A stretch of DNA of 64,000 nt from Micromonosporaceae bacterium (lineage in GTDB: Bacteria > Actinomycetota > Actinomycetes > Mycobacteriales > Micromonosporaceae), in NCBI GenBank assembly GCA_047459115.1, contig VSCG01000001.1, positions 10,488-74,487 on the forward strand. Reading direction: 5' to 3'. The notes beneath the pieces are model-generated. The model was not told the DNA's origin and did not search any database. It worked only from the letters and a program-made list of their open reading frames with translations. Shown piece after piece: positions 6,758 to 54,845 of this stretch. Position 1 is the first letter of the stretch. Every line of letters begins with the position of its first letter. The position numbers and the translations under genes are program-made.

Positions 6758-8917
6758 GTGACCGTCGCCGTAGTGTTCGTGACACAGCCGTCCCCAAGGG
6801 CGCCCGAGCATGCCGCAGCCATTCTGCCCCTGTCCGAGACGACGGTAATCGGGCGGTTGCATGAGCAACTTGTGGCATTTGGGACCAGGGCCATAACGAC
6901 CGTGGCTCGGCCAGAGTTGGTGCCGCATCTGCGCCGGAGGGGTCTTGACGTGATCGAGTCGACGAGCCCGGTCACAGATATGACAATTGCTGCGCGCATT
7001 ATTCGTAGCTCGCTCGATCACGTCGTCATCTGTTCTGGCAACGTCGTAGCGCACCAGGCTGCCCTCGCTTCCCTGACATCCGCGGCAATGCGGCGAAGCG
7101 TTGCCATGGTGGGCGCAATAGATGCGCGTTGTCAGCAGACATCGATACGTTGTGAGCGCGGACGGGTGGTATCCGTGGCGACCGAGTATCATTCGGTCAG
7201 CGGAGCCAATGCGAGCTTTCGCGGGGTCCTCGTGGTCGCCCGTCACCAGGCGCAGACATTTTCGGAAGCCTGCTACCAGCTGGTAAATACGGGTCCGGCC
7301 GATGTGATTTCTGGATGGGGCGGGGCGGTGGAGTTGATGCTCCTGGCCGCCGTTCGTTCCGGAATCCCGATCGGTGCACACGATGTGCGGGGGCTATTTT
7401 GTGCCCGGGTCGCCACAGAGGAGGACGTCATTGTCGCGGCTGAGCGACTCCACGCCGTTGATGAGCGCGCGGCGTTGCTCAAGGCAGCCGTCAAACCACA
7501 CGACGACCTCTTCGCCACTTTCGGCGTAAGCCCCTTCTCACCGCAGGTGGTGCGATGGGCGGCACGATGGCGGCTCACGCCGACTCAGGTGACCTGGTTT
7601 TCTGTGGTGCTTGCGGTGGGCGCAGCGCTGGCCTTCGCGTTAGGGGATCGAGAGTTCAGGATTGCTGGCGCGATCCTCCTGTACCTGAGCTTCGTACTTG
7701 ATTGTGTGGACGGTCAACTGGCACGGTTCACCGGCCGCTTTTCCTCCTACGGTGGCTGGCTCGACGCCATTTCCGATCGGGTCAAGGAATATATCGTCTA
7801 TGCAGGACTCGCCATCGGAGCAGCCCATACTGGCACTGCTGATGTATGGCCGATCGCGCTGGCAGCAATTGCTCTGCAGACTGCTCGTCATATGACCGAT
7901 ACCTGGTACGGCGCGATTCAGGATGAGCATATTGACCGCAGAACACGGGCCCCACTTGATGTGTCGGCGGATGGATTCGCAGCAACGCCGCAACCGCCCG
8001 GGCGCTCATTCAGCCTGCGCCTAGGCTCAGCCCTCGGTTACCTCTCCGCGCGCGCACATGACAATCGGCAATCGGTGCTGTACTGGGTCAAGCGTACCCT
8101 TCCCTTTCCGATAGGCGAGAGATGGCTGCTGATCGGCGTAACGGCAGCGGTGTTCGACGCGCGAATCACATTCGTCTGCTTGCTATCCGGCGCGGCCATC
8201 GCCGCGATCTATACCCTGACGGGCCGGATACTACGCGCACGAATCATTAGGGCGTCCGCACTTGGACGTCACGGAACCTTTCTGCATCGCGACTCCGGTG
8301 CCGTCGATCGGTTCTTGGGATGGATCGGACAGGGAAGGCTGCGGCCGCTTCCAATTGCGCTCATAGCGGCTCTGCCGACAGTCGCGCTCTTGAGCTTAGA
8401 CTCGCTGGGGCTGGCCGCACGACAGCTCACCGCCACGGATGACCGGCTGATCGTGACGGCCGGACTGATCTTGTTAGGGGCTGGGCTGGGAGCTGGTCAT
8501 CCCCACAACGGTCCACTGGACTGGTTGGTGCCTGCGGCGCTCCGCGGCGCTGAATATCTCTTCATTCTGCTCGTTGCCCGTAACGAGGGTGTGTCTCCAC
8601 TGTTGGCATTCGCCTTGATCGGCGCGGTCACCGTCTTCCATTACGACCTAGCCGCCCGGCACGACACTCGGTCGTCACCGTTACCGGTCCGACGGATCGG
8701 GTTCGGCTGGGACGTGCGTGTCCTTTTCATGACGCTTGCAGCAGGCCTGGGGGCGGGAACTTTGCTATTCGCGAGCCTTCTGAGTTACCTCTCGGTGGTG
8801 TTTATCGTGGCTGCCTTATTCGGTGTATACAGAAGCCGCCGGGATTTGATTGGGCCGGTCCCACCTCGGCAGCATATTCGACACAATGAGACAGAAGCGG
8901 CGATTGTCGAGCGATGA
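6758..8917 (+). CDS. Three-part membrane protein: nucleotidyltransferase-like N-domain without a recognisable signature, CDP-alcohol phosphotransferase domain, and a C-terminal polytopic region
   Basis: 719 aa. Residues about 1-200 look like an NTP-transferase fold but lack a G-x-G-x-R-L loop (VFVTQPSPRAPEH instead). The middle has LDCVDGQLARFTGRFSSYGGWLDAISDRVKE, the CDP-OH-PT signature. The C-terminal ~300 aa are multi-TM; I recall such tails being catalogued as DUF5941, which needs checking. Its stop overlaps the next start (ATGA at 8914-8917). Confidence 0.75.
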   Translation: MTVAVVFVTQPSPRAPEHAAAILPLSETTVIGRLHEQLVAFGTRAITTVARPELVPHLRRRGLDVIESTSPVTDMTIAARIIRSSLDHVVICSGNVVAHQAALASLTSAAMRRSVAMVGAIDARCQQTSIRCERGRVVSVATEYHSVSGANASFRGVLVVARHQAQTFSEACYQLVNTGPADVISGWGGAVELMLLAAVRSGIPIGAHDVRGLFCARVATEEDVIVAAERLHAVDERAALLKAAVKPHDDLFATFGVSPFSPQVVRWAARWRLTPTQVTWFSVVLAVGAALAFALGDREFRIAGAILLYLSFVLDCVDGQLARFTGRFSSYGGWLDAISDRVKEYIVYAGLAIGAAHTGTADVWPIALAAIALQTARHMTDTWYGAIQDEHIDRRTRAPLDVSADGFAATPQPPGRSFSLRLGSALGYLSARAHDNRQSVLYWVKRTLPFPIGERWLLIGVTAAVFDARITFVCLLSGAAIAAIYTLTGRILRARIIRASALGRHGTFLHRDSGAVDRFLGWIGQGRLRPLPIALIAALPTVALLSLDSLGLAARQLTATDDRLIVTAGLILLGAGLGAGHPHNGPLDWLVPAALRGAEYLFILLVARNEGVSPLLAFALIGAVTVFHYDLAARHDTRSSPLPVRRIGFGWDVRVLFMTLAAGLGAGTLLFASLLSYLSVVFIVAALFGVYRSRRDLIGPVPPRQHIRHNETEAAIVER

Positions 8918-10665
8918 AGACGAGAATTTCGAACCGATCCGAAGCATTGGTCCTCGCTATCTCCGCAATCAGCGCCATCGCGCTCGCCGGTGCTATTGCG
9001 GTCGTACTGTTGGGCAGCCCGAAACCGAGACTCGTGCCAGGCCAGCAAGGCCCATCATCACCAGTGGGCCAACCAATCACGGTGATCAGCTGGAACATCT
9101 GCAGCGACGTCAGAACCTGGTGTCCCTCCGGGGGAGAGCCGGAGGTACTCGCCGAGGCCATAACTGAGACCATTCGCACGCACGAACCTGACGCTGTGTT
9201 TCTGCAGGAGGTGTGCTCAGCGGTAGTAACGGATCTGCGGAGACGCCTGGGTCCCGAATGGATGGTGCACTTTCGCAAGACCAGGGAGCTCGTGTATGTC
9301 GGGCAGCAGGAGGTGATCAGGACGACATCGTGTTCCGAACCGCTAGGTGATATTGGAATCGCGATCGGACACACCTCATCGTTGGCTCGGTCTGGGTCGG
9401 CGTCCATCGATCAAGCGAGACCCGTGATACGTTCGCATCCCCTGCCATCTCCGACTCCTACCAATAAAGGGCGAGCCCACCAGCGGCTTGCCATGTGTGT
9501 TCAACTGAATGCACCCGGCCTGCAGTTTTGCAACGCGCATCTACCAACGCGGGGAGAGGATCCGTCCGGACAACTGCGGGCCGCCGGCATAGAGATCCTC
9601 GCCGAAGAGATCAGCTTCGGGCAGCGGGTGGGTCTATTGACCATTGCTGGGGGTGATCTGAATACTCGACCCACAGAAACCGTGAATGGTACCCCGATAC
9701 TTGCTCGTTTGTACGACACAAGCACCGAGTGCGATTCAGGCGACGACCCGCAGCCCACATTTAAGGGCGAAAAGATCGACTATATATTTGCAGGTTGGGG
9801 ATCGGCCAACATGGAATGTAGGATCGAGTCCTCCACTCGTTCTGATCACGACATTCTCCTTGCCCGGATCCAGTTGATGCAAGGCATGGGTGCTCGTGCC
9901 CTTCGTGATGGCTTTCCCCTACTGCTGGAGAAGGCATATGCACGCGCCGACCGGCAGCGCCCGAATGCTCTTCTGCTGACAACTGCCCTTCAGCGTGGCT
10001 TCAACAACGTCGAAGTCGACGTGCAGCCGCCTACGGAGGCCGGTAGCTTCCCACTCGGCACCAATAAACCTGATCCCTGGGGCCGTACACTTGAGGATTA
10101 CTATCTCTATCCTCTGCAGCAATGGGTGAACGCACAGCAAGGCAAGATTCACCCTGAGTCGCAAGGTCCGTTCACTCTCATGGTTGATATCAGGAGCAGT
10201 CGGCTGACCGAGAATGTGTACCGGTCTCTTGAACGGAATCTGACACCCTACAAGCCAATGCTTTCGCGGGTTGAGGAGGGCAAGGTCGTCCCGGGGCCAA
10301 TCCGTGTGGTGGTGCCCAACTCGGCTGCACTCGTCAGACATCTGGCGGACAGATCCAGCTCATTGTTCTTTGTGGACGTACGTGCGCCGTGGCGAGCAGG
10401 AGAGGCCGCCATGCCTCCTTCGGTCTTTGTTGCGATGGCCAGCGTGAGGCTGAGTGACGTGACAGGGGAGCAGATGGACCTGACCAGGGTGGCGGGGGAG
10501 GTGAAGCGAGCGCATGACCTTGGGTACGCGATTCGCTTCTACGGGTATGAGCACCTCGGAGACTCTCCGGAGATCAGGCGGATCTGGGCTGCACTAGAGG
10601 CGGCCGACGCGGACTTCATCACCACGGACGATCTAGATGCGTTGGTGCGCGCCCTTGCTCGCTGA
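8914..10665 (+). CDS. Membrane-anchored endonuclease/exonuclease/phosphatase (EEP) domain fused to a PI-PLC-like (Ca-dependent PLC-C1-like) domain
   Basis: 583 aa with an N-terminal TM anchor (LVLAISAISAIALAGAIAVVLL). EEP-like features are ITVISWNIC...DAVFLQEV...CNAHL...GGDLNT...DYIF...SDHDILLARI. The C-terminal ~260 aa resemble my recollection of bacterial PI-PLC-C1 proteins (RTLEDYYLYPL, FTLMVDIRS, PYKPML, IRFYGYE, ITTDDLDAL). The expected HxHNDY motif reads KAYARAD. Confidence 0.6.
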   Translation: MKTRISNRSEALVLAISAISAIALAGAIAVVLLGSPKPRLVPGQQGPSSPVGQPITVISWNICSDVRTWCPSGGEPEVLAEAITETIRTHEPDAVFLQEVCSAVVTDLRRRLGPEWMVHFRKTRELVYVGQQEVIRTTSCSEPLGDIGIAIGHTSSLARSGSASIDQARPVIRSHPLPSPTPTNKGRAHQRLAMCVQLNAPGLQFCNAHLPTRGEDPSGQLRAAGIEILAEEISFGQRVGLLTIAGGDLNTRPTETVNGTPILARLYDTSTECDSGDDPQPTFKGEKIDYIFAGWGSANMECRIESSTRSDHDILLARIQLMQGMGARALRDGFPLLLEKAYARADRQRPNALLLTTALQRGFNNVEVDVQPPTEAGSFPLGTNKPDPWGRTLEDYYLYPLQQWVNAQQGKIHPESQGPFTLMVDIRSSRLTENVYRSLERNLTPYKPMLSRVEEGKVVPGPIRVVVPNSAALVRHLADRSSSLFFVDVRAPWRAGEAAMPPSVFVAMASVRLSDVTGEQMDLTRVAGEVKRAHDLGYAIRFYGYEHLGDSPEIRRIWAALEAADADFITTDDLDALVRALAR

Positions 10666-10968: not shown

Positions 10969-12714
10969 TTGAGGATGCTCTTCTTGCGGCTATATCGGGC
11001 GCTGCCGAGGCGATTTCGAACCAGGCTGCTCGGAATGATTCCGAGTTCGCGACTGTTGTGGCTCGTGCGCCGGCTAGTGCCACTTCAGACGCAACGCCAG
11101 ATGCACGACTCCAGCGGTCGGCGGGTCGTTCGTGATCGAGGGCAGGTCGTTCCGGCCTCCGTGTCTGATACGGCCACTCCGTTCGCCGTAAGGCAGGCGA
11201 ATCTCGACGCCGTCGTGCAGGTGTTGGACAGCGCGGGTATACCCTATTTCCGGATTCGCCCTGACAGTAGCTTGAGGACGGCTATCGCGGTTCCGTTGCA
11301 GAACCAGGCCAGGGTCGCAGAGGAGATCCATCGCTCTTTGAGCGACTTCACGGTTCGGTGGGTGTCCCCTAGGTCGAGACCAATAAAGGAGAATGGCGGT
11401 CATTCGGCAGTTCTTCAGGTATTTCACGCCGTTACCTCGCAAACGGGGTCACTGGTGCTTGGGAGCAAGTACGCTTGCGAGATTGAGTTCTGGCTAGAGG
11501 AGAAAGGAAAACTTATCGCTCCTCGTCGGAACGCCGTCGGCGGCGTCGTTTCTGCGAAGTATGAGCCAGTCATGGCCGACGAGCATGTGTTTAGCCGCCT
11601 TGCAGGCCGAAACGCCAGTCGACAGTATCAGACCCGAGAGGAGTTTGCTTGCCTCGGAATCGACATGGTCGACTTCCCCATCGATGCCGTCTACACATGG
11701 GTCGATGGCTCCGATCCCGAATGGCAAAATAGGAAGAATGCCGCGTTGGCGACTCAGGGTGACGGTGAGTTGAGCGAACTTGCTGCCAACTCATCTAGGT
11801 ATCTGAATCGCGATGAATTGCGCTATTCGCTTCGATCATTGGTATGTTTCGCTCCGTGGATTCGGCACATCTACCTTGTGACGGATGACCAGATTCCCCC
11901 GTGGTTGGATCCTCACCACCCGATGATAACGGTAATCCGCCACCGAGAGATCTTTGGTGAAACCGGTGTCTTGCCTACGTTCAACTCTCACGCGATCGAA
12001 TCAAGGCTGCACCGTATTCGCGGTCTTTCGGAACATTTCCTATATGTGAACGACGACATGTTCTTCGGCCGGATGGTCTATCCGACGACATTCTTTCACC
12101 CGAACGGCATCGCCAAGTTCTTCTTGTCACGGGCGCAAATGGGTGCCGGCCCGGCATCTATCGACGATGCGCCCGTAGATGCCGCCGCCAAGAACAACCG
12201 TACGATTATTCAGGATCGGTACGGCCGGTTCATCAGCCGGAAGATGAAACACGTGCCGTATCCTCTCCGCAAGAGCGTGTTGGAGGAGATCGATCAGGCG
12301 CTGCATGCCCAGGTCTTGGCGACCGCCTCCCACCAGTTCCGGCACCCTGGAGATCTCTCTATCCCCTCGTCCCTCCATCACTACTGGGCTCTCATGACTG
12401 GTCGCTCGGTGCCGGGTTCGATCAGGTACGCCTACGCAGATCTCGGACACCCGTCGACCCCGTTGAGGCTTCGGGAGTTGCTCGCCAAGAGAAGGTGGGA
12501 TGTATTTTGCCTCAACGATACAGATTCGGGCGACGTGAGCCATGCGGAGCAGATGGCAATGATGTCGGAGTTTCTGCCCGCGTACTTCCCGTTCCGAGCG
12601 CCATTTGAACTGCCAGACGACGTAGCGGCGGAGCGCGCCCGCCTCGGCGCTACCCAACTGGCTAAGGAACTACTAGATCTTCCTACCGGTTTAGCTGGAG
12701 CGGGGCGGAATTAG
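10969..12714 (+). CDS. Stealth family protein (putative hexose-1-phosphoryltransferase)
   Basis: Stealth conserved regions are present: CR1 DAVYTWVDGSDPEW, CR2 NRDELRYSLRSL..FAPWIRHIYLVTDDQIPPWL, CR3 LPTFNSHAIESRLHRIRGLSEHFLYVNDDMFFG, CR4 region HQFRHP. The start is TTG 10969 or ATG 10975. Confidence 0.85.
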   Translation: MRMLFLRLYRALPRRFRTRLLGMIPSSRLLWLVRRLVPLQTQRQMHDSSGRRVVRDRGQVVPASVSDTATPFAVRQANLDAVVQVLDSAGIPYFRIRPDSSLRTAIAVPLQNQARVAEEIHRSLSDFTVRWVSPRSRPIKENGGHSAVLQVFHAVTSQTGSLVLGSKYACEIEFWLEEKGKLIAPRRNAVGGVVSAKYEPVMADEHVFSRLAGRNASRQYQTREEFACLGIDMVDFPIDAVYTWVDGSDPEWQNRKNAALATQGDGELSELAANSSRYLNRDELRYSLRSLVCFAPWIRHIYLVTDDQIPPWLDPHHPMITVIRHREIFGETGVLPTFNSHAIESRLHRIRGLSEHFLYVNDDMFFGRMVYPTTFFHPNGIAKFFLSRAQMGAGPASIDDAPVDAAAKNNRTIIQDRYGRFISRKMKHVPYPLRKSVLEEIDQALHAQVLATASHQFRHPGDLSIPSSLHHYWALMTGRSVPGSIRYAYADLGHPSTPLRLRELLAKRRWDVFCLNDTDSGDVSHAEQMAMMSEFLPAYFPFRAPFELPDDVAAERARLGATQLAKELLDLPTGLAGAGRN

Positions 12715-12721
12715 ACCGCCC

Positions 12722-13705
12722 GTGCGGCGCTCCAAGAAGAGGAAGGGCCTAACCGTGCCGCTCGTCATCAAGATGCCCCGTAATCAGTCCGCGCTCGCTG
12801 CCGTCGGCCCGTACCCTCGTGCTCTCAACGTTCTCGATCGCAAACAGACGGCCGTGCAACGACAGTTGCGCCGTGCGGGCCTTGCCGGTTACGAGCCGTC
12901 GACTCAGGCGACTCTACTAGCGATCATGCAGCTCGCACCTCGGGGTTCAGCGTTCTTCGACATCGGTGCGCACATCGGTCTGTACTCGGCAATGGTTTCT
13001 GCCATCTTCGGTTCTCGCGGGCATCGTGTATATGCCTTCGAACCGAGCCCAGAAACCGCTCAGATTTGCCGGAAGCTGCGAGACATCAATGGCTTGGACT
13101 TCGGTGTTGTCGAGAAAGCGCTTGGCCGTGAACCAAGTGAGGCCGTGCTTCACCTCTCTGCGAAAGCCGAGACATCAAACTCCCTTAACCCGACTTTTCG
13201 CAGTTCTATCGGGACTGTTACTGTTCCGGTTTCCACTGTCGATCTTTTCACGGCGACTCACCATGTCGACCCGTGGCTTATGAAAATCGACGTTGAGACA
13301 TATGAGCCAATGGTGTTGGCGGGATCGCTGCAAGCTATCGAACGTGCTCGACCATGGGTTATCTGTGAGATACTGGACAGCGTTGATCATGAACTCTTGG
13401 CTCCGGTTCTCAGCGACCTTGCCGACCTTGGCTATACGTTTTATCGCATCGATGATCGACACCCTTGGTCGAGCAGTACAGTTGACGGGTACCGCTATCG
13501 TATATCAGGGAGCAGCAGAGACTGGCTATTCGCCCCTACGGACCTAAGTAGCGATTTTTTCAAGACCGTGCGCGCTTGGTCGGATGCGATCGCCAAGTGT
13601 GGCCCGGAGACCAATCTGCTGATCCCTGGGGGTGTGCCATTCCCAGAAGGTTGGAACGCTCCTTACCCACGGCGTAGATGGTGGCATCTCGGCCGGCGAG
13701 ACTGA
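12722..13705 (+). CDS. FkbM family methyltransferase
   Basis: FFDIGAHIGLYS...VYAFEPSPET...KALGREPSEAVLHLS...SNSL...LMKIDVETYEPMVLAG. The start is uncertain; an internal ATG lies near 12768. Confidence 0.8.
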   Translation: MRRSKKRKGLTVPLVIKMPRNQSALAAVGPYPRALNVLDRKQTAVQRQLRRAGLAGYEPSTQATLLAIMQLAPRGSAFFDIGAHIGLYSAMVSAIFGSRGHRVYAFEPSPETAQICRKLRDINGLDFGVVEKALGREPSEAVLHLSAKAETSNSLNPTFRSSIGTVTVPVSTVDLFTATHHVDPWLMKIDVETYEPMVLAGSLQAIERARPWVICEILDSVDHELLAPVLSDLADLGYTFYRIDDRHPWSSSTVDGYRYRISGSSRDWLFAPTDLSSDFFKTVRAWSDAIAKCGPETNLLIPGGVPFPEGWNAPYPRRRWWHLGRRD

Positions 13706-13907: not shown

Positions 13908-14648
13908 GTGAGGTGCTTGATGATTGGGTTGGTACTCGCTGCTGGGGCGGGAAGCCGGCTGCGGCCGCACACTGACGCGCTGCCCAAGACCCTCCTACCG
14001 GTCGCCGGCGAGCTGACCATCCTCGACATCATCCTGCGCAACCTCGCCGCCGTGGGTCTGGCCGACGTCGCGGTCGTGGTCGGATACGCCGCGGCGGCCG
14101 TACAGGCTCGTGTGCCCGAACTCGAGCGGCGGCACGGCGTGCGGCTGAGCCTGCTCCACAACGACCGCGCCGACTGGAACAACGCCTACTCGCTCTGGCT
14201 CGCGCGGCACGCATTCGCCGAGGGCGCGCTGCTGGTCAACGGGGACACCGTCCACCCGCTCGACGTGGAGAAGACCCTGCTCGCCGAGCGCGGCCCCGGG
14301 GTGCTGATCGCGGTCGACGGGCTCAAGACGTTGACCGACGAGGCGATGAAGGTGCGCCTGGACCCCTCCGGCCGACTGCTGCGCATCACCAAGCAGATGC
14401 CGGTGGCCGACGCGCACGGGGAGTACATCGGCGCCGCGCTCATCGAGGCACGTGCGGCGCGCGACCTCGCCGCGGCCCTCGAGGCGACCTGGCGGCGCGA
14501 TCCGCAGCTGTACTACGAGGACGGTTTCCAGCTCTTCGCCGACCGCACCGGCGACCTGCGGGCCGCCCGGCTCGGAGCGTTCGAATGGGTGGAGGTCGAC
14601 GACCCTGCCGACCTCGCCCGGGCCCGGGACATCGCATGCCGCTACTAG
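13908..14648 (+). CDS. NTP-transferase domain protein (LicC/phospho-alcohol cytidylyltransferase-like)
   Basis: MIGLVLAAGAGSRLRPHTDALPKTLLPV...VVVGY...NNAYSLWLA...LLVNGDT...YIGAALI. The likely true start is ATG 13920. Confidence 0.8.
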   Translation: MRCLMIGLVLAAGAGSRLRPHTDALPKTLLPVAGELTILDIILRNLAAVGLADVAVVVGYAAAAVQARVPELERRHGVRLSLLHNDRADWNNAYSLWLARHAFAEGALLVNGDTVHPLDVEKTLLAERGPGVLIAVDGLKTLTDEAMKVRLDPSGRLLRITKQMPVADAHGEYIGAALIEARAARDLAAALEATWRRDPQLYYEDGFQLFADRTGDLRAARLGAFEWVEVDDPADLARARDIACRY

Positions 14649-15697
14649 CCCGCGCGGTGCTCGCCCCGCTCGCGGTCGAGGTGCGCCGCGGCGCGCTGGG
14701 CAGCCTCCGCGACATCCTCACCGACCGGCGCATCTCAGCCGGCGGCGACGTCGCGGTGGTCGTTGGCCCCGGCCTAGGTAACGAGGTCAGCGAACTGCTG
14801 CGGGGCCGGCTGGACCGCGCGGAGATTCTCACGGTCACCGGTGGCACGTTCGCCGCCGCCGCCGAACTCGGCGCCAAGCTGCGCGCCCGGGCGTACGACG
14901 CTGTCGTCGGCATCGGCGGCGGCCGCACCATCGACACCGTCAAGTACGCGGCGACCCAGCAGGGCCTGCCGATGGTCTCCGTCGCCACCAGCCTGGCGCA
15001 CGACGGGATCGCATCCCCGGTGAGCGTGCTGGACCGGGAAGGGGTGAGCGTGTCGTACGGCGTGCACACCCCGCTCGCTGTGGTGGTCGACCTGGACTTC
15101 GTGCGCCGCAGCCCGGCATGGCAGACCCGCTCGGGCGTCGGCGACGCGCTCAGCAACCTGTCGGCGACGGCGGACTGGCAGCTCGCGCACGAGGTGCGTG
15201 GAGAGCCGCTCGACGGGCTGGCCCTGGCGTTGGCGCGTACGGGCGCCGAGGCCGTGCTCTCGCACCCCGGCGGGATCGGCGACGAGGACTTCCTCGCCAC
15301 GCTGGCGAATGCGCTCGTGCTCGGCGGAGTGGCGATGGCCGTGGCCGGCTCCAGCCTGCCGTGCAGCGGCGGCTGCCACGAGATCGCCCACGCCGTCACC
15401 AAGCTCTATCCGGGCGCCGGCACCCACGGCCAGCAGGTCGGGCTCGGGGCGCTGTTCTGCACGTACCTGCGCGACGACGCCGACCACTTCGTCCGGCTCG
15501 CCGCCGCCCTGCGCCGCCACGGGCTGCCCCGCACCCCGGCCGAGCTGGGGCTGACCGATGAGCAGTTCGTCGAGGCGGTGACGCACGCGCCCGACACCCG
15601 CCCGGGGCGGTACACGATCCTCGAGCACCTCGCGCTGTCCCGCGACCAGATCGCCGGTAAGCTCGCCGGTTTCCTTCGTGCCGTCGCCCGTTCCTGA
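14636..15697 (+). CDS. Iron-containing alcohol dehydrogenase family protein, sn-glycerol-1-phosphate dehydrogenase-like (AraM/EgsA-type)
   Basis: DAVVGIGGGRTIDTVKYAA...PMVSVATSLAHDGIASPVSVL...GVGDALSN...CHEIAHAV. ATG 14636 overlaps the upstream stop by 13 nt, so I prefer it over the track start 14585. Confidence 0.75.
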   Translation: MPLLARAVLAPLAVEVRRGALGSLRDILTDRRISAGGDVAVVVGPGLGNEVSELLRGRLDRAEILTVTGGTFAAAAELGAKLRARAYDAVVGIGGGRTIDTVKYAATQQGLPMVSVATSLAHDGIASPVSVLDREGVSVSYGVHTPLAVVVDLDFVRRSPAWQTRSGVGDALSNLSATADWQLAHEVRGEPLDGLALALARTGAEAVLSHPGGIGDEDFLATLANALVLGGVAMAVAGSSLPCSGGCHEIAHAVTKLYPGAGTHGQQVGLGALFCTYLRDDADHFVRLAAALRRHGLPRTPAELGLTDEQFVEAVTHAPDTRPGRYTILEHLALSRDQIAGKLAGFLRAVARS

Positions 15698-54754: not shown

Positions 54755-54845
54755 TCGCCGGCACCCAGGCGCGCGGTGCACGGACAAAGGTCGCTCCCCG
54801 GTGGTCGATTCCACCCTCGACGGCGCCAGTCGCGGTTTGACCTGC
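54755..54845 (-). ncRNA. ZTP (pfl motif) riboswitch in the glyA leader
   Basis: The minus-strand RNA reads GGUCAAACCGCGACUGGCGCCGUCGAGGGUGGAAUCGACCACCGGGGAGCGACC...(linker)...CGCGCGCCUGGGUGCC. It contains the remembered conserved blocks GACUGGCG, a GGUGGA..ACCACC hairpin, GGGGAGCGACC and the 3' CGCCUGGG pseudoknot partner. glyA is a classic ZTP-regulated gene. Confidence 0.8.

Follow-up and report, generated by a model that had tools for sequence, protein, structure and literature searches.

The locus described here lies in a 64,000-nucleotide stretch of a Micromonosporaceae bacterium genome (GenBank assembly GCA_047459115.1, contig VSCG01000001.1, positions 10,488 to 74,487 of the forward strand), which is called the window below. 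As shown in Table 1, four consecutive genes on its forward strand encode a CDP-alcohol phosphotransferase with a DUF5941 domain, a protein in which an endonuclease/exonuclease/phosphatase (EEP) domain is fused to a degenerate barrel of the glycerophosphodiester phosphodiesterase (GDPD) type, a Stealth hexose-1-phosphoryltransferase, and an FkbM-family methyltransferase. The second of these genes, the EEP fusion, is the subject of this analysis. Among extracytoplasmic phosphodiesterases associated with wall polymers, its predicted architecture of a live EEP domain and a dead GDPD domain is unusual.

Table 1. The EEP-fusion gene, its parts and its neighbours (positions are those of the window).
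Feature	Position	Strand	Evidence
Whole gene, anchored EEP phosphodiesterase (predicted) with degenerate GDPD-like barrel	8914..10665	+	Open reading frame, translation, syntenic orthologue
Hydrophobic stretch near the N-terminus (residues 12-33), either a signal anchor or a long signal peptide	8947..9012	+	Read from sequence
EEP catalytic domain, residues 58-312	9085..9849	+	Pfam PF03372
Variable inter-domain linker, residues ~322-336	9877..9921	+	Low identity, high dN/dS
Degenerate GDPD-like/PLC-like TIM barrel, residues 337-583	9922..10662	+	Relatives, alignments, AF2, Foldseek
CDP-alcohol phosphotransferase (CDP-OH_P_transf) and DUF5941 membrane protein	6758..8917	+	Pfam, NCBIfam
Stealth hexose-1-phosphoryltransferase, CR1-CR4	10969..12714	+	Pfam Stealth_CR1-4, E 4e-15 to 5e-45
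FkbM-family methyltransferase, last cassette gene, GC3 0.60	12722..13705	+	Pfam, NCBIfam

The EEP-fusion gene and its domains

The open reading frame (ORF) of the EEP fusion ran from ATG to TGA and encoded 583 residues, as described in the original prediction. An orthologue of 586 residues (P0001), found on a Logan assembly contig (L001), was 58% identical over 99% of the length, and the gene order around the EEP fusion was conserved between L001 and the window. The whole-gene ratio of nonsynonymous to synonymous substitution (dN/dS) between the two was ~0.20 by the Nei-Gojobori method, a rough value with synonymous sites saturated. The 58%-identical syntenic orthologue and the dN/dS of ~0.2 therefore indicate a real gene and not a chance ORF. 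By the same rough measure, the EEP domains showed 61% identity and a dN/dS of 0.20, the C-terminal barrels 63% and ~0.17, and the 13 residues of the linker 15% and 0.64. The degenerate barrel is under constraint equal to that on the EEP domain, with purifying selection acting on both.

Word-index homologue searches returned one or two matches each, whether run with the whole protein, the EEP domain or the alignment of the fusions, and an exhaustive HMMER search was needed. There was no model for the EEP-fusion protein in NCBIfam, no record of the exact protein in the assembly index, and no relative of it in a scan of species-representative genome contigs; the window genome and any close relative appear to be absent from the species-representative set. 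The sole match in a metagenome scan was a fragment of about 3 kb identical to the window. This fragment (L002, Ga0079224_100176380, 3087 bp, from a JGI metagenome) encoded residues 341-583 of the window protein with 100% identity at positions 3-731, and a fragment of 247 residues (P0002) was 98% identical to the window protein. These two identities indicate that metagenome sampling has captured this strain or a very close one.

A transmembrane anchor followed by an EEP domain had been proposed for the N-terminal half, and both were recovered. Residues 12-33 (LVLAISAISAIALAGAIAVVLL) formed an unbroken hydrophobic run, with K2, R4 and R8 ahead of it. The EEP region matched Pfam Exo_endo_phos with an E-value of 9.1e-8 and 32.5 bits (cut-off 24.5), covering positions 1-225 of the 225 in the profile. 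The catalytic set was complete (N61, E99, H209, D248, N250, D289, D311 and H312) and was invariant in six aligned relatives, which comprised fusion relatives and a stand-alone Streptomyces relative; eight Cys residues were also invariant in the aligned EEP domains. The roles assigned to the motif residues, in 'WN' (Asn), 'QE' (Glu), 'GDxN' (Asp and Asn) and the C-terminal 'SDH' (Asp-His), follow what is generally known of the fold. The domain is probably an intact metal-dependent phosphodiesterase domain, for which activity is predicted. The EEP-domain relatives P0151 and P0061 carried Sec- or Tat-like signal peptides. An extracytoplasmic location is predicted because of these signal peptides, the positive charges on the N-terminal side of the hydrophobic segment, and the conserved Cys residues.

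The C-terminal half (residues 322-583) had no Pfam match above cut-off; its only match, below threshold, was with the C-terminal part of GDPD (E=0.085, 13.4 bits, cut-off 23.6). In the PDB, neither the single protein nor either domain alone had a sequence match, and only profiles gave matches. When 1.84 billion cluster representatives were searched exhaustively with HMMER, 509 relatives of the barrel, counted as clusters at 50% identity, were found at E<1e-3, and 87 at E<1e-10. Their alignments spanned residues ~14-260 of the 262-residue query, and most of them were stand-alone proteins of 250-300 residues. The family consensus was PLxxAHAHNDYxHxRPLxDALxxGFxSVEADVxLxDGxLLVGH ... LLIDxK ... DGR ... 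AHxxGxxxRFWGTP ... GVDxINTDDL, and the family is called the AHAHNDY family here. Its invariant residues A358, R541, D567 and D572 (window numbering) were all present in the window barrel. Relatives are named 'phosphatidylinositol-specific phospholipase C/glycerophosphodiester phosphodiesterase family protein' by NCBI. When they were scanned singly against Pfam, GDPD_2 was matched by 33 of 54 and GDPD by 8 of 54 (GDPD = PF03009 / PF13653). The family probably corresponds to the 'AIM6-like' subgroup of the phospholipase C (PLC)-like phosphodiesterase superfamily, and no functional data were found in the literature on AIM6. The AHAHNDY family as a whole seems to be without a characterised member.

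The family profile matched the GDPD structure 2pz0 at E=2.9e-5, followed by 3no3, the lysoplasmalogenase 7ym0, and 1zcc; in the profile alignment, E-A-D and G-H-D of the family stood opposite E44-L-D46 and H59-D of 2pz0. An AlphaFold2 (AF2) model of the barrel, built from a 54-sequence alignment, reached a mean predicted local distance difference test (pLDDT) score of 92.6 and a predicted template modelling (TM) score of 0.90, and showed alternating strands and helices in an eight-stranded barrel. The first Foldseek matches of this model in the PDB were the spider class II phospholipase D (PLD)/sphingomyelinase D (SMase D) structures 3rlh, 4rw3 and 4q6x, with E-values of 1e-5 to 8e-5 and TM scores of 0.52-0.55. 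Further matches were the GDPDs 3mz2 and 4r7o, the Staphylococcus aureus lysophosphatidylglycerol PLD (LPG-PLD) 8ghh, and PLC-beta3 4gnk, and the leading matches (class II PLD, GDPD and LPG-PLD) had E-values from 1e-5 to 2e-3. The barrel belongs to the PLC-like/GDPD superfamily as a member of the AHAHNDY family, without a close solved relative.

The original prediction had read this half as a PLC-like barrel of the bacterial PI-PLC-C1 type and had called for a Pfam and structure check of residues ~320-583. The fold, the Foldseek matches and the family profile bore out a barrel of the superfamily, although no Pfam family was above cut-off. The finer assignment did not survive and is correct at the superfamily level only: the relatives matched GDPD_2 or GDPD, and PI-PLC-C1 (PF16670) was rejected, since it matched neither the window barrel (E<=10) nor the 54 relatives (E<=1e-3) nor seven typical relatives (E<=10). 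No PI-PLC-C1 structure was present among the sequence-profile matches or the top 50 fold matches. What PF16670 and the window barrel have in common is the broad PLC-like barrel superfamily.

Lost and retained residues and the distribution of the fusion

The signature of GDPDs is HR...EN...ExD...HD, in which the two His residues act as general base and acid, while Glu44, Asp46 and Glu111 bind the metal (PMC4926365). The columns of the barrel family were counted over 153 domain instances aligned to the family hidden Markov model (HMM) and read at the window positions. As had been noted from the letters of the window, the catalytic His motif (HxHNDY in the original prediction) was missing: 'KAYARAD' stood where the family has 'xAHAHND', and the column counts agreed. 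Five conserved residues were lost, at the positions of R344 (His in 135 of 153 instances), T383 (His in 139), A345 (Asn in 134), R427 (Lys in 141) and Y342 (His in 120). Eight were kept: E367 (Glu in 146 of 153), D369 (Asp in 144), D425 (Asp in 142), D488 (Asp in 139), H534 (His in 131), R541 (Arg in 146), D567 (Asp in 142) and D572 (Asp in 140). The column of T383 aligned with His59 of 2pz0, and the column of Y342 held F or Y in 23 other relatives. A comparable loss of residues was found in only ~10 of the 153 instances. In the AF2 model the lost and kept positions sat at or just past the C-terminal ends of the strands, the usual place of the active site in such barrels.

The AYARAD / LDT / DIR pattern of the window was identical in the orthologue P0001. 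The sister pair P0005 and P0006 was more degenerate, with AFIGAAGT in the loop, E-x-E in place of E-x-D, and no Lys. Since the loop differs again in this pair, the members of the degenerate clade share no alternative catalytic set. Judged from its identity and dN/dS against the orthologue, the barrel would be a maintained pseudoenzyme module and not a decaying one, with a possible metal or phosphate site kept. The loss of the His motif makes a non-catalytic or binding role likely, as the original prediction had suggested.

GDPDs (GDPD and GDPD_2, with 2pz0 and the teichoicase GlpQ as examples) share with the window barrel the TIM-barrel fold, the aligned E-x-D and 'TDD' motifs, and the acidic metal residues. 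However, their motif is HRG where the family has AHAHNDY, and the similarity is remote (the profile E-value given above and a TM score of ~0.5); the window barrel also fell below the GDPD cut-off and has lost both catalytic His residues. The AHAHNDY proteins aligned with the window barrel over the full length and shared its RFWG/INTDD C-terminal signature, and the window barrel is a degenerate member among them.

The fusion was surveyed in the 150 best family representatives. An EEP domain joined to an AHAHNDY barrel was found in at least seven other clusters at 50% identity. An EEP domain of the same subfamily was located N-terminal to the barrel in P0001, P0005, P0006 (a fragment), P0007 and P0061. 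In P0142 the EEP domain fused to the barrel was more distant, and the order was reversed in P0008, in which the barrel was followed by beta-propeller repeats and then by the EEP domain. A functional link between the EEP domain and the barrel is supported by their fusion in both orders and in several lineages. Elsewhere the barrel was fused to a metallophosphatase, a sulfatase/alkaline-phosphatase-like domain, a canonical GDPD, a GDSL lipase, or a PQQ propeller, and these partners suit a phosphodiesterase acting in tandem with other phosphoesterases. A plasmid collection contained single-domain barrel relatives only and no fusion, and no EEP and barrel fusion was found in the species-representative genomes scanned. 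The original prediction knew of no described fusion of EEP and PLC-like domains; we likewise found no paper describing one, but the architecture itself is not confined to the window. The EEP and barrel fusion is rare, not unique.

P0007 and P0061, both from soil metagenomes, resembled the window protein in EEP subfamily, invariant Cys pattern, domain order and related barrels, and P0007 also shared the PDPWGRTL motif with the window barrel. In contrast to the window protein, these two uncharacterised proteins kept the catalytic motif (AHAHNDE or AHSHNDE, G-H-D and the Lys), had ricin-type lectin domains added, and were encoded outside wall-polymer clusters. In a neighbour-joining tree of the barrels, a distance tree without support values, the window protein with P0001 and P0005 with P0006 formed one clade, and P0007 was adjacent. 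This tree suggests that the loss of the catalytic residues came after the fusion arose.

Genomic context of the fusion

The neighbours named in the original prediction were recognised by Pfam, with CDP-OH_P_transf and DUF5941 upstream and a Stealth protein with all four conserved regions downstream. The upstream gene ended in GTC GAG CGA TGA, in which the ATG of the EEP fusion was embedded, so that the two genes overlapped by ATGA. On L001 the 'VER*' end and the ATGA overlap were shared, and the C-terminus of the upstream gene product was conserved. The retention of this overlap over 42% protein divergence indicates translational coupling. A Stealth gene was also located downstream of the EEP fusion on L001, after an ORF of 119 residues. 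This ORF (L001 positions 2150-2509) had no Pfam match; the corresponding 304-bp spacer of the window contained no ORF like it, and a promoter and terminator scan of that spacer found neither element. In the CDP-alcohol phosphotransferase, DUF5941 was at the C-terminus and the N-terminal ~230 residues had no Pfam match. Its best NCBIfam similarities, far below cut-off, were to (archaetidyl/phosphatidyl)inositol-phosphate synthases and to bifunctional IPCT/DIPPS. No paper mentioning DUF5941 was found.

The GC content of the window was ~0.72 and dropped to ~0.59 between 6 and 14 kb. The GC content at third codon positions (GC3) was 0.60-0.67 in the four consecutive genes of Table 1 and 0.80-0.93 in the flanks. 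The flanks encoded a GDP-mannose 4,6-dehydratase, an epimerase, TagA/WecG, an NTP transferase, Fe-ADH_2, an ABC-2 permease and LCP, and also a GT4 glycosyltransferase, a TetR protein and an ABC ATPase. Given their low GC3 relative to the flanks, the four genes look like a horizontally acquired cassette, and this cassette looks like an insertion into a resident TagA/ABC/LCP wall-glycopolymer cluster. The NTP transferase and Fe-ADH_2, together with the CDP-alcohol phosphotransferase, suggest a route through a CDP-activated polyol phosphate that is not of the usual TagD/TagF type. The ORF calls of the NTP transferase (13908-14648) and of Fe-ADH_2, which was glycerol-1-phosphate-dehydrogenase-like (14585-15697), overlapped by 64 nt.

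Among the other members of the degenerate clade, P0006 was followed by a Methyltransf_24 gene and a GT2 + TagF-like CDP-glycerol glycerophosphotransferase, and P0005, on a short contig, adjoined a Methyltransf_24 gene. The intact-motif lectin-bearing fusions P0007 and P0061 were not in glycopolymer clusters, and one of these relatives adjoined a GDPD gene. The distant EEP relatives P0151, P0152 and P0008 were found in contexts unrelated to glycopolymers. With the distant and intact relatives in unrelated contexts, the association with polymer clusters is therefore specific to the degenerate clade. Over these very few examples, the contexts form a consistent pattern of two arrangements, a dead barrel with an anchor in a phosphate-polymer cluster and a live barrel with a lectin elsewhere.

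Proposed function and rival explanations

We propose with moderate confidence that the window protein is a membrane-tethered extracytoplasmic EEP phosphodiesterase for a phosphodiester-linked wall polymer, in which the pseudo-GDPD barrel serves as the binding module. We infer that the protein faces outwards, that the polymer is its substrate and that the barrel has a binding role. In this reading the CDP-alcohol phosphotransferase and the Stealth protein would build the polymer in the cytoplasm, on a lipid-linked primer as implied by TagA; the ABC-2 system would then export it and LCP would attach it. Anchored on the outside of the membrane, the EEP fusion would cleave phosphodiester bonds in the polymer or in its lipid-linked form. 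The EEP domain would be the only catalytic module. Binding of a phospho-ester element of the polymer, possibly via the retained metal site, would fall to the dead barrel, which would thereby target or position the EEP domain. Candidate purposes would be trimming of polymer length, remodelling, turnover, release, and removal of groups.

Several observations weigh against this proposal. The placement of the remainder of the protein outside the membrane is a prediction from sequence. The EEP-domain profile matched PDB structures in a weak and generic way, with 3g6s and 4ruw (both uncharacterised EEP proteins), nocturnin, exonuclease III, beta-hemolysin/sphingomyelinase and TDP2 among the matches, and the substrate class therefore cannot be read from the EEP sequence. 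A full-length AF2 model built from a two-sequence alignment had a pLDDT of 34, and the arrangement of the domains is not derivable from it. With the metal triad E367/D369/D425 retained, the barrel could still carry out some residual or altered chemistry. Finally, the context pattern rests on three or four examples, two of them on short contigs.

An unlikely alternative, in our judgement, is a lipid-directed enzyme of the PLC/PLD type, in which a sphingomyelinase-like EEP domain would work with a headgroup-binding barrel on a membrane phospholipid, or on a lipid, serving as anchor or primer, that is produced by the coupled protein of the CDP-alcohol phosphatidyltransferase family. Such an enzyme would, for example, detach the polymer from a phospholipid-type carrier after export or recycle the carrier. 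The membrane tether and the translational coupling to a member of a lipid-synthase family speak for it, and the best structural matches of the barrel (spider PLD/SMase D, S. aureus LPG-PLD and lysoplasmalogenase) cleave lipid headgroups. The EEP profile also weakly matched beta-hemolysin and sphingomyelin phosphodiesterase (E 0.003-0.04), but nucleases and nocturnin are among the weak matches as well, which hence do not discriminate. TagA and LCP in the cluster imply a conventional undecaprenyl-pyrophosphate-linked route, and another member of the clade is coupled to a TagF-like polymerase rather than to a lipid synthase, both of which argue against a lipid substrate.

It is very unlikely that the barrel is still catalytic through non-canonical residues, such as Tyr342 and Arg344 with the metal site, which would make the protein a bifunctional diesterase/monoesterase like its intact relatives. 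The strong purifying selection on the barrel and the retention of E367/D369/D425, H534, R541, D567 and D572 fit such chemistry, and some otherwise intact relatives also have F or Y at the first His column. However, the window barrel has other residues at both columns of the acid/base His residues of GDPDs (roles from PMC4926365) and also at those of the Asn and Lys, and P0005 and P0006 have unrelated residues there and E-x-E for E-x-D, with no alternative set in common. We consider it just as improbable that the protein is a secreted scavenger, for example a nuclease or a diesterase that acts on organophosphates in general to acquire phosphate, and hitch-hikes with the cassette without being devoted to the polymer pathway. 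Nucleases are among the enzymes with the EEP fold, phosphatases of many types occur as fusion partners of the AHAHNDY domain, as scavenging of phosphate would predict, and the intact-motif relatives are secreted lectin-bearing enzymes outside polymer clusters, one of them beside a GDPD gene. Against this stand the stop/start overlap and the gene order kept across 58%-identical orthologues, the recurrence of the degenerate clade beside Stealth or TagF-like genes, and a membrane tether in place of a cleavable secretion signal and a lectin.

For the proposed tethered wall-polymer phosphodiesterase, the nearest described parallel is WhyD of Streptococcus pneumoniae, a membrane-anchored hydrolase of the GlpQ/GDPD type that tailors wall teichoic acids (PMC9208761). 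Both proteins have a membrane tether, an extracytoplasmic phosphodiesterase module (predicted in the window protein) and a barrel of the GDPD superfamily, and a polymer-tailoring role is proposed for the window protein. They differ in that WhyD has an active GDPD domain and an anchor of seven transmembrane helices, whereas the window protein has a barrel without the His pair, would use the EEP domain for catalysis, and has a single-helix anchor; the sequence relationship between the two is shown at the superfamily level at most. Membership of the window protein in the class of wall-teichoic-acid hydrolases with GlpQ, PhoD and WhyD may be argued from the genomic context. The eukaryotic GlcNAc-1-phosphotransferase, a Stealth member, and the uncovering enzyme likewise pair a Stealth transferase with a possible enzyme for sugar-1-phosphate diesters. 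This comparison, raised as a speculation in the original prediction, is an analogy only, for or against which the evidence does not speak, and the uncovering enzyme belongs to an unrelated family. No relevant paper was found on Stealth-associated hydrolases.

A bolder form of the proposal, which we consider a long shot, would make the protein a dedicated tailoring phosphodiesterase for Stealth-made sugar-1-phosphate polymers. A GDPD-like enzyme would have turned into a metal-dependent recognition module that steers the EEP domain, giving a bacterial counterpart of the phosphotransferase and uncovering-enzyme logic and the first pseudoenzyme 'reader' for teichoic-acid-like polymers. To our knowledge, few enzymes are known for extracytoplasmic remodelling of phosphate polymers (GlpQ, PhoD and WhyD), and almost nothing is known of it for actinomycetes or for Stealth-made polymers. 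If the tethered wall-polymer phosphodiesterase were confirmed, an EEP-type hydrolase would join this short list, the protein would offer a clean natural case in which a phosphodiesterase barrel has become a binding module, and there would be a handle on the abundant uncharacterised AHAHNDY family with its 509 clusters. The value would be higher if the barrel proved to be a polymer-reading module; if the protein were merely another secreted phosphodiesterase, the value would lie in annotation only. Since AHAHNDY domains are repeatedly fused to phosphatases that differ in fold, the family is likely to take part in organophosphate processing. Elsewhere in the window, a ZMP/ZTP riboswitch (RF01750) was matched on the reverse strand at 54756-54843, with 46.8 bits against a gathering score of 39.

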